From NCBI GenBank assembly GCA_944383335.1, contig CALWPD010000003.1, positions 3,498 to 67,497 on the forward strand: a stretch of 64,000 nucleotides of DNA. Reading direction: 5' to 3'. Position 1 is the stretch's first letter. Every line of letters begins with the position of its first letter. Both the position numbers and the translations under genes were made by a program. The stretch is from an uncultured Clostridia bacterium. GTDB lineage: Bacteria; Bacillota; Clostridia; Christensenellales; UBA1242. Below, piece after piece: positions 39,990-58,781 of the stretch. The notes under the pieces are model-generated. The model was not told the origin of the DNA and made no database searches. It worked only from the letters and a program-made list of their open reading frames with translations.

Positions 39990-40064
39990 TGGGGTATCGC
40001 CAAGCGGTAAGGCATTGGACTCTGACTCCAACATCCGTAGGTTCGAATCCTACTACCCCAGCCA
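39990..40064 (+). tRNA. tRNA-Gln (anticodon CTG)
   Basis: TGGGGTA/TACCCCA acceptor stem, anticodon stem TTGGA/TCCAA with loop CTCTGAC, GTTCGAATC T-loop, encoded CCA. Confidence 0.9.
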
Positions 40065-40151
40065 AATTTTGGGTAAAAATGAAATTTTGTAAAATTTGTC
40101 AAAAAAGTTCTTTACTTTTTTATGGAAGTTTTATATAATAGACAAAGTTAT

Positions 40152-40226
40152 TGGGGTGTAGCCAAGTGGTAAGGCACGAGACTTTGACTCTCGCATGCGT
40201 AGGTTCAAATCCTGCCACCCCAGCCA
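40152..40226 (+). tRNA. tRNA-Gln (anticodon TTG)
   Basis: TGGGGTG/CACCCCA acceptor stem, anticodon stem CGAGA/TCTCG with loop CTTTGAC, GTTCAAATC T-loop, encoded CCA. Confidence 0.9.
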
Positions 40227-40231
40227 AATAT

Positions 40232-40307
40232 GGTTCACTAGCTCAGTCGGTAGAGCACTTGACTTTTAATCAAGGGGTCCCGGGTTCGAATCCCGGGTGA
40301 GCCACCA
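40232..40307 (+). tRNA. tRNA-Lys (anticodon TTT)
   Basis: AGCTCAGTCGGTAGAGC D-arm, anticodon stem CTTGA/TCAAG with loop CTTTTAA, GGTTCGAATCC T-arm, encoded CCA. Confidence 0.92.
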
Positions 40308-40335
40308 TCTAAACTCCTTTATTTATAAGTCTTTC

Positions 40336-40363
40336 AAGGCGATTTGTCGCTTTGATTTTTTTT
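40336..40363 (+). terminator. Terminator of the Gln-Gln-Lys tRNA operon
   Basis: Stem AAGGCGA/TCGCTTT, loop TTTG, then T8. Confidence 0.7.
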
Positions 40364-40386
40364 GTTAAAATTTTGCTATTTTTAAA

Positions 40387-40424
40387 AAAACTGTGTCAAA
40401 AACTGTGTCAATTTTTTAAACTGT
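40387..40424 (+). repeat. Short direct repeats AAAACTGTGTCA x2 plus a partial third (AAACTGT)
   Basis: Exact 12-nt tandem copies at 40387-40398 and 40399-40410, with AAACTGT again at 40418-40424. They lie between two convergent tRNA terminators. Confidence 0.8.
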
Positions 40425-40472
40425 TATTATGTAATAATAATCGCCATATAATCTTAATAGTTTTTCTTATAC

Positions 40473-40500
40473 AAAAAAAACCTCGCCACAAGGCTTGGTT
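40473..40500 (-). terminator. Terminator after tRNA-Leu(TAG)
   Basis: Minus strand AACCAAGCC-TTGT-GGCGAGGTT imperfect stem, followed by T8. Confidence 0.6.
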
Positions 40501-40501
40501 T

Positions 40502-40584
40502 TGGTGCGGATGAAAGGACTTGAACCTTCACGGTTGCCCACAGGATCCTAAGTCCTGCGCGTCTGCCAATTTCGCCACATCCGC
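40502..40584 (-). tRNA. tRNA-Leu (anticodon TAG), encoded CCA
   Basis: Reverse complement is GCGGATGTGGCGAAATTGGCAGACGCGCAGGACTTAGGATCCTGTGGGCAACCGTGAAGGTTCAAGTCCTTTCATCCGCACCA, with a long variable arm. Its own TTGACA-17-TAACAT promoter lies upstream. Confidence 0.92.
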
Positions 40585-49085: not shown

Positions 49086-49147
49086 ATTTTTTCTCCTTTT
49101 TTAATGATTATTTGTTTATATAAATTTTGTGTCTTTATTCATAAAAT

Positions 49148-49311
49148 GACATTCTTTATGTCATCCCAAGCCATGCCTTAATGCGTCGGCTTTTTATGTC
49201 ATTCTGAGACGGCCGTCAACACATCGACCTTTTTCGTCATTCTGAGCGAAGCGAAGAATCTCAACTTTATACTGTCATTCCGAGTAGTGCGGCATGTCAG
49301 AGCAACCGGTT
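49148..49311 (+). repeat. Phased array of four 38-nt units, each opening with GTCAT(T/C)C(T/C)(G/A)AG
   Basis: Unit starts at 49160, 49198, 49236 and 49274, exactly 38 nt apart, with a partial GACATTC at 49148. Unit 3 is the canonical hairpin GTCATTCTGAGCGAAGCGAAGAATCTC. Units 1 and 2 end in T5. Confidence 0.8.
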
Positions 49312-49323
49312 GGGTGGTGGGCA

Positions 49324-49917
49324 TTAACTTATTGTTTCATCAAGAAATGTTGCCATATTATCAGCAATATGAGTCAAAAACGCATTTGGATATTTGTAAT
49401 AAATATCATTCAAACTAATTCCGCCTTTAACTCGCATGTCATACTCTCCCATATGCCAGTTGATACACATCGCTTCTTCTCTGGTTAGTCGAATAAAACC
49501 ATTTAAGATATACACAGATTTTTCACCATGACCATAGGGTAATTTGTCCTGTGTTGTATAATATGGTACTTGCACCCAAACCCCATTTTGTTTAACATTT
49601 TTGGTGTCCACAACATATGTATCAACTTTACAAATATCATGAAACAATGCCACAATAGTTGCACTTTCAAGCGAAAAATATTGTTGCCATTGTTCGCCAT
49701 ATTGCATTTTTAAAAGTTTAACAAGTCTTTCAAAAACATTAAGGGAATGTTTACAAAGCCCACCAGCGCAATTTGAGTGATATCTTGTTGATGCTGGTGC
49801 TACAAAAAAGTCAGTTTTTTGTAAATATTCAATAAGTGTATTAATACCTTCACGTTTTATGTTGTCTTTAACCAAACTTAAAAAAATATTTTTGTTGTCT
49901 TCAATAACATTATCCAT
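49324..49917 (-). CDS. HD-domain hydrolase (YhaM-like HD domain, no OB fold)
   Basis: STRYHSNCAGGLCKHSLNV and ALFHDICK (H...HD). Start taken at MDNVIEDNK (49917) with RBS GGAGAA. The upstream extension in the track is repeat-rich and probably non-coding. Confidence 0.72.
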   Translation of the reverse strand: MDNVIEDNKNIFLSLVKDNIKREGINTLIEYLQKTDFFVAPASTRYHSNCAGGLCKHSLNVFERLVKLLKMQYGEQWQQYFSLESATIVALFHDICKVDTYVVDTKNVKQNGVWVQVPYYTTQDKLPYGHGEKSVYILNGFIRLTREEAMCINWHMGEYDMRVKGGISLNDIYYKYPNAFLTHIADNMATFLDETIS

Positions 49918-49934
49918 TAATTTTCTCCGAACAC

Positions 49935-49963
49935 ATTTTAGCATAAAAACAATCAATAAACAA
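49935..49963 (-). promoter_or_regulatory. Candidate promoter of the HD-hydrolase gene
   Basis: Minus strand TTGTTT-17 nt-TAAAAT with a TG extension, about 17 nt before the ATG. Confidence 0.45.
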
Positions 49964-50143
49964 CATTTTGGCATATAAATAATACATATGGAAAATAATA
50001 ATGTGGAAAATATAATATCGCTTGCAACAATTTTTTCCACATCACTTTCGAAAAACAGTACAAAAGAACAACTGTTAGAATATAAAATATTTTTTCAAAC
50101 TGTAACAAATAATTTAAATTCAATACTCTCAAGCAAAAAGTAA

Positions 50144-50300
50144 GAGATTTTTCACTGACGCCACTTTTCGTCTTCTTGAGCGTTTCAGTCTGTCATTTTG
50201 AGTTTGAATTTCGTCATTTTGAGTGTGTATTCCGTCATTCTGGGCGTTTTAGCCTGTCATTCTGAGCCCGCTCCAACGCGTCGACCCACGAAGAATCTCA
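50144..50300 (+). repeat. Tandem 21-22-nt array of the GTCATTYTGAG family (five units) plus one inverted partial copy
   Basis: Unit starts at 50170, 50192, 50213, 50234 and 50256 (spacing 22, 21, 21, 22). An inverted partial copy GAGATTTTTCACTGAC lies at 50144-50159. The last unit is a long form, GTCATTCTGAG-22 nt-CGAAGAATCTC. Confidence 0.8.
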
Positions 50301-50301
50301 T

Positions 50302-50431
50302 GGGCACCAAAAAGTACCTACGGAAACTTTTTGGCGAGAGGAGAAACGGAGCGTAAAGTAAAAATTTGCGAATAGCAAATTGAAGCCCTAAGCGACAGTT
50401 TTGACGAGAGACGGAGCCGCAGAGCTCACGA
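50302..50431 (+). repeat. About 130-nt structured repeat element, copy 2
   Basis: Aligns with the reverse complement of 1100-1227. Hairpins CCAAAAAGT/ACTTTTTGG and AATTTGC/GCAAATT. Followed by another CGAAGAATCT half-site (50429-50438). Confidence 0.6.
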
Positions 50432-50437
50432 AGAATC

Positions 50438-51355
50438 TTATTTTTTTAATCGCAAATCGCTATTCTCAACATTGATAACAAGTGAAGATGCTTGGCTTAA
50501 AAGTCTTGAAAACACTCTGTCGCCATAAAAGTCTTGAATTTGCTGTAAGGATAGGTTAGTAGATATGACCGTTTTTTTATTGTTTCTCATTCTCTCAGAA
50601 AGCACATTATATATCCCTTCAATCGTAACATTTTTTAATATAGGTTCTGTTCCAAGGTCATCAATAAAAAGGTAATCGGGTTCCATTAACATATGCAAAT
50701 ATTGACCCTTAGTTTCATCAAAAGTTGTGTGATATTTTAATAAATTTTGATTAAGCTCAAAAGCGGAAGTAAAGTATACAAGTACTTCTTTATTAATAAG
50801 GTCATTTGCCATACATTCCATTACATATGTTTTGCCAGCGCCGGTTTTACCAATCAAAAGCACATTATTATAGGGGTTTTTCTTATCACACCAGTTTTTT
50901 AAGATTTCATATAATTTTTGTGTTTTTTTGGGGTCATCAAAGATTTTAAAATCGCAATTTTCGAAACTTTTTTTGTCCTTGCTAAGTCCGCTTTTTTCAA
51001 ATAAAATTAAATTAATTTCGCGTTTTAGACAAGAACATATCTCACCATTAACATAGCCTGTATCATTACATTTTGCACAAGTGTAGTGTGGTGAAATGGC
51101 TTTTTTGTCAATTTCTAATTTTTTCAAAATGTCATCTTGAATTTTAAGAAGATTTGTTAGGTCATATTTTGGCTTTTCCCCATAAACTTCAGATTTAGCA
51201 TTTTGAATTTCTGCTTGTTTAATTTCTTTAAAATTCTTTTTAAATTCTTCATTTGCCATCGCTTTTTCAAAAAAACTGTATGCCAGTGCTTCAGCATTTA
51301 CACGCCTTGCTTTGATTTTGTTTAGCGCTGATTCAATTATTTGTTTGTTTAACAT
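50438..51355 (-). CDS. dnaI: Helicase loader DnaI/DnaC-like AAA+ protein
   Basis: N-terminal Cys cluster CAKCNDTGYVNGEICSC, Walker A GKTGAGKTY and Walker B LFIDDLGTE. Confidence 0.8.
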   Translation of the reverse strand: MLNKQIIESALNKIKARRVNAEALAYSFFEKAMANEEFKKNFKEIKQAEIQNAKSEVYGEKPKYDLTNLLKIQDDILKKLEIDKKAISPHYTCAKCNDTGYVNGEICSCLKREINLILFEKSGLSKDKKSFENCDFKIFDDPKKTQKLYEILKNWCDKKNPYNNVLLIGKTGAGKTYVMECMANDLINKEVLVYFTSAFELNQNLLKYHTTFDETKGQYLHMLMEPDYLFIDDLGTEPILKNVTIEGIYNVLSERMRNNKKTVISTNLSLQQIQDFYGDRVFSRLLSQASSLVINVENSDLRLKK

Positions 51356-54437: not shown

Positions 54438-54468
54438 GGACATCAAAGGTCCACTCACGAAAAATCTC
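54438..54468 (+). repeat. Degenerate copy of the hairpin repeat family (long-form right arm CCACTCACGAAAAATCTC)
   Basis: The right half resembles CCCACGAAGAATCTC at 50286-50300. The left half is diverged (GGACATCAAAGG). Confidence 0.35.
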
Positions 54469-57982: not shown

Positions 57983-58042
57983 AGAACTATTTTTCACCTT
58001 AAGCCATCATACTTGTTATTTTGTTTTATTCAACTCCCACTT

Positions 58043-58076
58043 GTCATTTCGAGCGTCAGCGAGAAATCTCTTTTTT
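58043..58076 (+). repeat. Hairpin repeat copy (GTCATTTCGAGCGTCAGCGAGAAATCTC) followed by T6; probably doubles as the acpS terminator
   Basis: Stem ATTTC/GAAAT with inner CG-TCAG-CG, and a T-run at 58071-58076. Confidence 0.75.
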
Positions 58077-58753: not shown

Positions 58754-58781
58754 GTCGTGGCTAGCGTTAGCGAAAAATCTC
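58754..58781 (+). repeat. Degenerate hairpin repeat copy (GTCGTGGCTAGCGTTAGCGAAAAATCTC)
   Basis: Same length and outer/inner landmarks as the 58043 copy, but the stem arms no longer pair. Confidence 0.55.

Follow-up and report, generated by a model that had tools for sequence, protein, structure and literature searches.

Hairpin repeats in a Clostridia contig resemble the NTS/SRM hairpins of the Ssn system and adjoin small GIY-YIG genes in other genomes

The DNA analysed here (the window) is a stretch of 64,000 nucleotides from an uncultured Clostridia bacterium. It is Clostridia-like: it contains DnaD/DnaI-type genes, and homologues of its Nth carry the names Clostridia or Christensenellales. 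Short hairpin repeats, together with partial and degenerate copies of them, are found in two arrays that flank an HD-like gene (at about 49160-49318 and 50144-50299), after acpS, after mazF, and at one further position. The features are as follows.

49160..49197, + strand: first 38-nt unit of the left array, in which the 5' motif GTCATCCC is degenerate; a small hairpin unrelated to the family (AAGCC..GGCTT) and a T-rich tail are also present
49198..49235, + strand: second 38-nt unit, with an exact 5' half-site GTCATTCTGAG, no 3' arm to pair with it, and no stable fold
49236..49262, + strand: intact canonical hairpin, composed of CGTC, ATTCT, GA, GC-GAA-GC, GA, AGAAT and CTC
49274..49318, + strand: 5' half-site GTCATTCCGAG with a GC-rich tail (49% GC, against 32.5% for the window)
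50166..50255, + strand: array of four 5' half-site units, at 50170 (degenerate), 50192, 50213 and 50234, with a period of 21-22 nt
50256..50299, + strand: long-form hairpin, with outer arms ATTCT/AGAAT and a 22-nt insert in the same frame
50300..50441, + strand: GC-richer filler, with an orphan 3' half CACGAAGAATCTT at its end
54438..54468, + strand: degenerate copy with the 3' half CACGAAAAATCTC retained; on the 5' side there is a GGAC..GTCC hairpin unrelated to the family
58043..58076, + strand: intact hairpin with the compensated stem ATTTC/GAAAT, the loop GTCA and a T6 run, 61 nt past the acpS stop codon; probable terminator
58754..58781, + strand: degenerate copy after mazF, GTCGTGGCTAGCGTTAGCGAAAAATCTC, with the outer stem unpaired

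The HD-like ORF (49324-50040, - strand) has only weak HD-domain matches (MobH, YhaM and HDIG models, E about 0.004-0.01), and its true start is probably an ATG giving a protein of ~197 aa, as in the relative L169 described below. The orphan 3' half at the end of the filler (50427-50441) abuts the stop codon of a dnaI-like gene (50438-50440, - strand). The window also contains a cluster of four tRNAs at 39990-40584, namely Gln-CTG, Gln-TTG, Lys-TTT (+) and Leu-TAG (-), which is unrelated to the repeats.

Read directly, the hairpin at 49236-49262 is GTC ATTCT GAGCGAAGCGA AGAAT CTC, and that at 58043-58070 is GTC ATTTC GAGCGTCAGCGA GAAAT CTC, followed by T6 at 58071-58076. The long form at 50256-50299 is GTC ATTCT GAG-(22 nt)-CGA AGAAT CTC. 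All three are as described in an earlier reading of the window made from the sequence only. The architecture consists of an outer stem of 5 bp, a tandem G.A/A.G mismatch, a GC stem of 2 bp, and a loop of either GAA or GTCA. Between the first two copies the 5' arm changes from C-T to T-C and the 3' arm from G-A to A-G, such that C-G/T-A is replaced by T-A/C-G and pairing is therefore kept; the compensatory change at two stem positions that had been claimed is thus matched on both arms. The inner GCGAAGC was also correctly recognised as being of the d(GCGNAGC) mini-hairpin type. The DNA mini-hairpins d(GCGAAGC) and d(GCGNAGC) were reportedly found by Hirao and colleagues to be extraordinarily stable, and the innermost 7 nt of the repeat match this type exactly, except that here the mini-hairpin is the tip of a longer, putatively protein-recognised hairpin, in which longer stem-loops can take its place.

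An exhaustive search of the window for GTC-stem-CTC hairpins gives only three intact copies, with lengths of 27, 28 and 44 nt. The motif GTCATTYYGAG exceeds chance, with seven exact matches, all on the + strand, where 0.13 ± 0.34 are expected (100 shuffles), and 12 matches with one mismatch allowed, against 3.3 expected; CGARRAATCTC occurs nine times, against 2.5 expected. To the left of the HD-like gene the GTCATTYYGAG sites lie at 49198, 49236 and 49274, with a period of 38 nt, and to the right they lie at 50192, 50213, 50234 (one mismatch) and 50256, with a period of 21-22 nt. The copies at 54438-54468 and 58754-58781 are both degenerate, with the 3' half (CGAAAAATCTC) retained and the 5' arm unpaired; the first of these had already been listed as a degenerate copy, and is found as such with its 3' half kept. 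The (Y)GTC flank reads CGTC at 49235-49238 and TGTC at both 58042-58045 and 50255-50258, and every intact window copy has a C directly 3' of the palindrome (AGAAT-C or GAAAT-C). All the window copies share the G-rich strand, the template for lagging-strand synthesis, a bias that is not significant because there are just five independent loci.

Predicted nearest-neighbour folding energies are weak, at about -2.9 kcal/mol as DNA with z near 0 (the unit at 49160..49197 has a fold of -4.3 kcal/mol, z -1.8), and the case for a structure is therefore one of covariation and not of stability. Two or three intact window copies are too few for this purpose, and covariation was established from copies collected elsewhere with the stem left free. 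The frame pattern GTCA-NNNN-GAGCGAAGCGA-NNNN-TCTC was scanned in public viral and cellular contig collections. It matched 46 viral contigs, which range from 37 to 71% GC, and gave at least 120 matches in cellular contigs (one genome per species), making at least 192 copies in more than 160 loci. The free 4-bp stem is fully Watson-Crick in approximately 168 of the 192 listed copies and occurs in at least 11 variants, which include TTCT/AGAA and TTTC/GAAA, the two found in the window. Among 123 independent copies, pairing holds in 98.1% of cells, all four free pairs have changed on both sides, and there are 94 double-sided changes compared to 22.5 in shuffles, with none of 500 shuffles reaching as high a value. 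In shifted registers the pairing drops to 13-49%. Most of the 123 copies have Y ahead of GTC; the C on the 3' side of the palindrome was fixed by the search pattern and is not an independent test in these copies.

The commonest stem variant is a 27-mer identical to 49236-49262, which makes up 66 of the 192 listed matches and is found in contigs of many phyla, viral as well as cellular. Hosts among the matches listed include Acidobacteriota, Chloroflexota, Nitrospirales, Bacteroidia, Verrucomicrobiota and lineages of the candidate phyla radiation (CPR), together with Saccharimonadales, Roizmanbacteria, Clostridia, Cyanobacteria (Calothrix) and Helicobacter marmotae. In a second scan the outer frame was fixed and the middle was left free (GTCATTCTGA-N3-33-GAAGAATCTC). 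The inserts found, 82 different ones with lengths of 7-33 nt, nearly all have complementary closing ends (GC..GC, AC..GT, GCC..GGC, GGGCC..GGCCC), such that the inner stem also covaries. GNA triloops predominate among the inserts, and all four GNA types were found. The copies collected elsewhere thus show that the claim of covariation is valid far beyond the two copies for which it was made, and that the long form is one of the usual states of the repeat. Elsewhere, roughly one copy in two belongs to an inverted doublet whose arms are 16-40 nt apart.

Searches against Rfam at the gathering threshold, using the window and 18 repeat-rich loci, returned tRNAs only, and at E<=10 the region 49100-50450 gave no match to the repeat. 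An exact-sequence literature search for 24-mers and 13-mers of the repeat found nothing relevant. An integron attC site was considered and dropped, as the repeats have no RYYYAAC/GTTRRRY core, differ in geometry and have no integrase. A hammerhead or other ribozyme was likewise dropped: CUGAGCG is unlike CUGANGA, and there was no Rfam match.

The sequence-only reading had proposed that the repeats bracket accessory modules, namely the HD-hydrolase gene and the mazF module. The comparison with two relatives contradicts this. In L169 (Nth 85% identical) the gene order is the same and both the HD-like gene and mazEF are present. Three of the four bracketing repeat loci, namely the two arrays beside the HD-like gene and the copy at 58754, are missing there, as is the copy at 54438; the hairpin after acpS is present. 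Relative to L169, the unit at 49160..49197 is missing there, the segment at 49274..49318 closes an insertion of ~160 nt, the filler at 50300..50441 belongs to an insertion of ~290 nt, and the intergenic gap corresponding to the 54438 copy is only a few nt long. In L170 (Nth 81% identical) mazEF is present and there is no SRM-like hairpin at all (the SRM motif is described below). The window arrays have 46-49% GC, compared to 32.5% for the window and 18-34% for five other sampled intergenic stretches. It follows from the comparison with L169 and L170 that the repeats are variable while the genes are conserved, and that the repeats are lineage-specific intergenic insertions. They are recent insertions and not markers of accessory cassettes. 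In other genomes, the neighbours of 126 dispersed copies are common housekeeping genes of various kinds, and no gene family recurs among them. The HD-like ORF (49324-50040, - strand) was considered as a partner enzyme and rejected, on the grounds of its weak HD matches, the lack of a PDB match and its retention in L169 without the repeats. A 14-kb metagenome contig of the same strain (L001, Logan) ends inside the region of the 50256 long-form hairpin, which occupies its positions 1-164, and a contig break at an array suggests that the repeat is multi-copy in that genome or sample.

The hairpin after acpS has a history of its own. At the orthologous position L169 has GTCATTTCGAGCCGAAAGGCGAGAAATCTC followed by T8, with the same outer stem and a different inner stem-loop, GCC-GAAA-GGC, which is still paired. 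At the same spot L170 has a plain AT hairpin, TTATTGCA..TGCAATAA, followed by T9 and located upstream of the conserved AAGAATATATTTTT. This placement indicates that the SRM-like hairpin sits at the stem position of an intrinsic terminator. As RNA, the 58043 hairpin folds with -7.4 kcal/mol; it was not called by a scan for consensus terminators, and no window copy other than this one is followed by a T-run. The earlier suggestion of an acpS terminator is thus plausible for this copy alone, on the strength of the T8 and T9 hairpins in the relatives, although the scan did not bear it out. From its sequence context, the 58043 hairpin probably serves as the transcription terminator of acpS.

The genes that are flanked by the hairpin in other genomes identify a likely partner. 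In every such locus the flanked gene encodes a single-domain GIY-YIG protein (a putative nuclease) of 94-103 aa, which matches Pfam PF01541 only; searches of NCBIfam and PDB with a flanked protein gave no match. Genes of this type adjoin hairpins in loci L044, L078, L151, L274 and L276/L280, and have them on both sides wherever both flanks can be read (L151 ends at the locus edge). One such locus is L044, where a gene of ~100 aa lies between two hairpins. Among the closest 120 homologues of the L044 protein (P0001-P0120; L044 10844-11188), 57 end with ...RDSSLRSE*, a translation of the inverted hairpin that stops at the TGA in its terminal TGAC, and approximately 28 end with VSF* or LSF*, where the direct hairpin is translated as far as the TGA in GTCATTCTGA. 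The stop codon is therefore inside the hairpin in about 85 of the 120. Homologues longer than the core have VILSEAKNL or HSERSEES upstream and/or another hairpin translation downstream. Many of the GIY-YIG homologues are on contigs shorter than 2 kb, suggesting assembly breaks induced by the repeats.

A profile search with this clade in 1.3 Mb of DNA found three genes only, all of them beside hairpins. The same pattern is seen in the DNA around genes of a second, more distant GIY-YIG clade, which occurs in Anaerolineales MAGs and in a genome of 4.26 Mb, with hairpin doublets on both sides of the gene. A regular-expression search for GIY-YIG genes found too few to quantify and was replaced by the HMM search and by the evidence of protein read-through. 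No GIY-YIG gene was found in the 64-kb window by HMM search. Clustering of the ORFs within 500 nt of the 192 listed copies gave only phage gene families common to related contigs. In L044 (9714-11907) the hairpin-flanked gene is located between a Fic/DOC-type gene and a HicB/HicA-like pair, and similar hairpins (GCACCCTT..AAGGGTGC) are found on both outer sides of the unit, possibly representing a duplicated target.

An association of this kind was described by Chenal et al. (2025, Nat Commun, PMC11893778), who reported that in Neisseria the NTS, CGTCATTCCCGCGMAVGCGGGAATCYRG, and the broader Ssn-related motifs (SRM) flank ssnA. SsnA is a 94-aa single-domain GIY-YIG protein, which binds the hairpin as ssDNA only, and on one strand only, and cleaves a few nt upstream of it; the C after the palindrome is the most important feature for binding, and the three nt before the palindrome are most important for cleavage (PMC11893778). 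The hairpin loop can be removed or extended, and the published Ssn is inactive on RNA (PMC11893778). SRM hairpins are intergenic and scattered, as well as flanking the nuclease gene, and are defined as imperfect palindromes of 20-50 nt with (H)GTC directly before them (PMC11893778). An SRM is found near 71% of ssnA homologues, and among genomes in which SRM repeats exceed 200, 81% have an SsnA homologue, a figure that makes no statement on repeat-poor genomes; Ssn was reported mostly from Gram-negative lineages (PMC11893778). No later literature on SsnA or SRM was found.

The hairpins described here match the frame of the Neisseria NTS (CGTCATTCC..GGAATC), with GTC before the palindrome and a C directly after it. 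The window repeats and NTS/SRM are both oriented, with a (C/T)GTCA 5' flank, a TTC-type palindrome and a 3' C. The family as a whole and NTS/SRM are both multi-copy, intergenic and clustered, and both flank small single-domain GIY-YIG genes on either side. A variable, extendable loop is likewise common to both, and the free loop length of 7-33 nt fits the published finding that the loop is dispensable and extendable (PMC11893778). The hairpin-flanked proteins of 94-96 aa have Tyr17 and Glu64 at the residue numbers that were mutated in N. meningitidis SsnA. There are also differences. In the repeat family the stem includes a tandem G.A/A.G mismatch, which is conserved, and a mini-hairpin of the GCGNAGC type, whereas the SRM stem is continuous and GC-rich, and the host here is a low-GC Clostridia-like genome, whereas Ssn occurs mostly in Gram-negative lineages (PMC11893778). 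The published SRM pattern, HGTCWYN(0-2)YYVSBRHN(0-5)WNVSBRGN(0-2)RNCYNB, has no match in the window, although the NTS control matches, and none beside the GIY-YIG genes of L274/L276/L280. This variant misses the pattern because the GA mismatch breaks the 'VSBR' positions.

On the basis of motif and gene linkage, we consider it likely that the window repeats are a member or variant of the SRM kind, as non-autonomous SRM/NTS-like hairpin copies. Given that the family is present across bacterial phyla and flanks small GIY-YIG genes in other genomes, it is not a new system, and the match to NTS/SRM-Ssn implies that the associated enzyme is a GIY-YIG nuclease and not a RAYT. In this respect the sequence-only reading, which had suggested a REP-like element with a dedicated enzyme, identified the right kind of element but looked for a RAYT/TnpA(REP) partner, where the flanked genes elsewhere are GIY-YIG. 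Such a copy is an oriented DNA hairpin in which (Y)GTC and C(TC) are fixed and enclose an outer stem of 5 bp, the G.A/A.G mismatch and an inner stem-loop that varies. By analogy with the published system, a small GIY-YIG nuclease (Ssn) would bind the folded ssDNA hairpin and cut a few nt upstream. The window copies may then be present or past substrates of a cognate Ssn that is encoded outside the window, or that acted before it was lost, and they may have spread in the way that REPs do with RAYTs.

A different reading takes the window copies as orphan relics, that is, SRM-like DNA acquired horizontally, in a genome that has no nuclease, and without function apart from occasional reuse as a terminator. 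This is unlikely, but deserves serious consideration. It would account for the lack of a GIY-YIG gene in the 64-kb window, for the mostly degenerate or half-site state of the units, and for the foreign base composition of the repeats, and it is compatible with the published 81%, which covers only genomes with more than 200 SRM repeats (PMC11893778). Against it, two of the hairpins are perfectly intact, and the one at 58043 has been conserved with compensating changes in the inner stem since the split from L169. The break of the same-strain metagenome contig at an array also points to many copies.

Other readings would place the repeats outside the Ssn system altogether. Plain intrinsic terminators, or stabilisers of mRNA 3' ends, of local origin are improbable: they suit the 58043 hairpin, given its T6 just after acpS, its RNA folding energy of -7.4 kcal/mol and the T-tailed hairpins at the same place in L169 and L170, but even this copy is not called by the consensus scan, the remaining window copies have no T-runs, and half-site arrays are unable to form terminators. 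Local origin also gives no account of an oriented 27-mer in dozens of phyla or of the GIY-YIG linkage, and the published Ssn is inactive on RNA (PMC11893778). REP or REPIN-type elements mobilised by a RAYT (an IS200/IS605-like Y1 HUH transposase) are very improbable. The family has much in common with REP/REPIN-RAYT and IS200/IS605 ends: ssDNA hairpins with a short conserved flank, inverted doublets (about half of the copies elsewhere, with a REPIN-like spacer of 16-40 nt), an enzyme gene set between copies of its own repeat, and a strand bias, in that the window copies are all on the G-rich, lagging-strand template strand. However, the enzyme there is a Y1 HUH transposase and here a predicted GIY-YIG hydrolytic nuclease; the hairpin-flanked gene is always GIY-YIG and never a Y1 transposase, and there is no recurrent transposase family near the 126 dispersed copies. 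The conserved flank is GTC(A) and not GTAG, the outer stem in the window is AT-rich, and the 27-mer is common to different phyla, whereas REPs are lineage-specific. A structured regulatory RNA or small RNA is the least probable reading and hardly worth entertaining. The covariation is formally compatible with RNA pairing, but there is no Rfam match at gathering or at E<=10, the copies run both with and against the genes next to them, the tandem GA with a GNA triloop is a classic DNA mini-hairpin, and the gene linkage indicates a DNA nuclease. A further comparison is provided by the dRS3 elements of Neisseria, short inverted repeats (ATTCCC-N8-GGGAAT) that form intergenic arrays and bracket short mosaic segments. 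The dRS3 arrays are Neisseria-specific and alternate with RS segments of 50-150 bp, whereas the window arrays consist of 21- or 38-nt units with the 5' arm only.

The SRM-like reading leaves the arrays to be considered. Tandem arrays of the 5' arm only (GTCAYYCTGAGC and about 9 nt), with a modal period of 20-21 nt, are found ahead of an intact hairpin in unrelated phyla; examples are L022 (12012-12080), L047, L043, L049 and positions 50192-50256 of the window. In some arrays adjacent units are identical, a sign that they were duplicated in tandem recently. This family differs from NTS/SRM in the prominence of its half-site arrays and inverted doublets, and the main text of the published description makes no mention of either (PMC11893778). 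The GA-mismatch variant, which is outside the published search pattern, and the half-site arrays of ~21 nt are thus what goes beyond that paper. Our guesses as to the origin of the arrays are that re-priming slipped at the hairpin base, or that cleavage a little upstream of the hairpin was followed by repair. A wider proposal, which is speculative and which we rate as unlikely, is that the GA-mismatch hairpins and the genes for GIY-YIG proteins of ~95 aa form a distinct Ssn subfamily of many phyla that is self-propagating, a GIY-YIG counterpart of REPIN/RAYT, with the ~21-nt arrays as footprints of propagation or of nuclease-induced repair. Such a footprint might arise, for example, if the lagging-strand template were cut repeatedly a little upstream of the hairpin and re-priming then slipped. 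If this were true, the mechanism by which Ssn-associated repeats spread would be readable from sequence.

Characterisation of the Ssn nuclease family dates from no earlier than 2025 and is limited to Neisseria and Wolbachia. A very abundant variant, found from CPR bacteria to Cyanobacteria, in gut Clostridia and on phage contigs, escapes the search motif that was published, and the published counts, both of such motifs and of enzyme/site pairs, are therefore probably too low. For the window, the assignment replaces an unknown REP-like repeat for which a RAYT should be sought with putative substrates of an ssDNA-specific GIY-YIG nuclease. It is also of use in annotation, as the hairpins explain many spurious peptides (VILSEAKNL, SFRAKRGIS, RDSSLRSE) and contig breaks. 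Hairpins or doublets are found inside long ORF predictions on phage contigs (L007, L020, L012, L008/L048), where they are read as VILSEAKNL or EIPRFARND; either the repeats have been inserted in frame into structural genes, or the ORFs have been called too long. In a Bacteroidaceae MAG (L052, 3563-4219) there is a satellite-like tandem repeat of 105 nt, with at least seven units and one hairpin, GTCATGTTGAGCGAAGCGAAACATCTC, in each unit.
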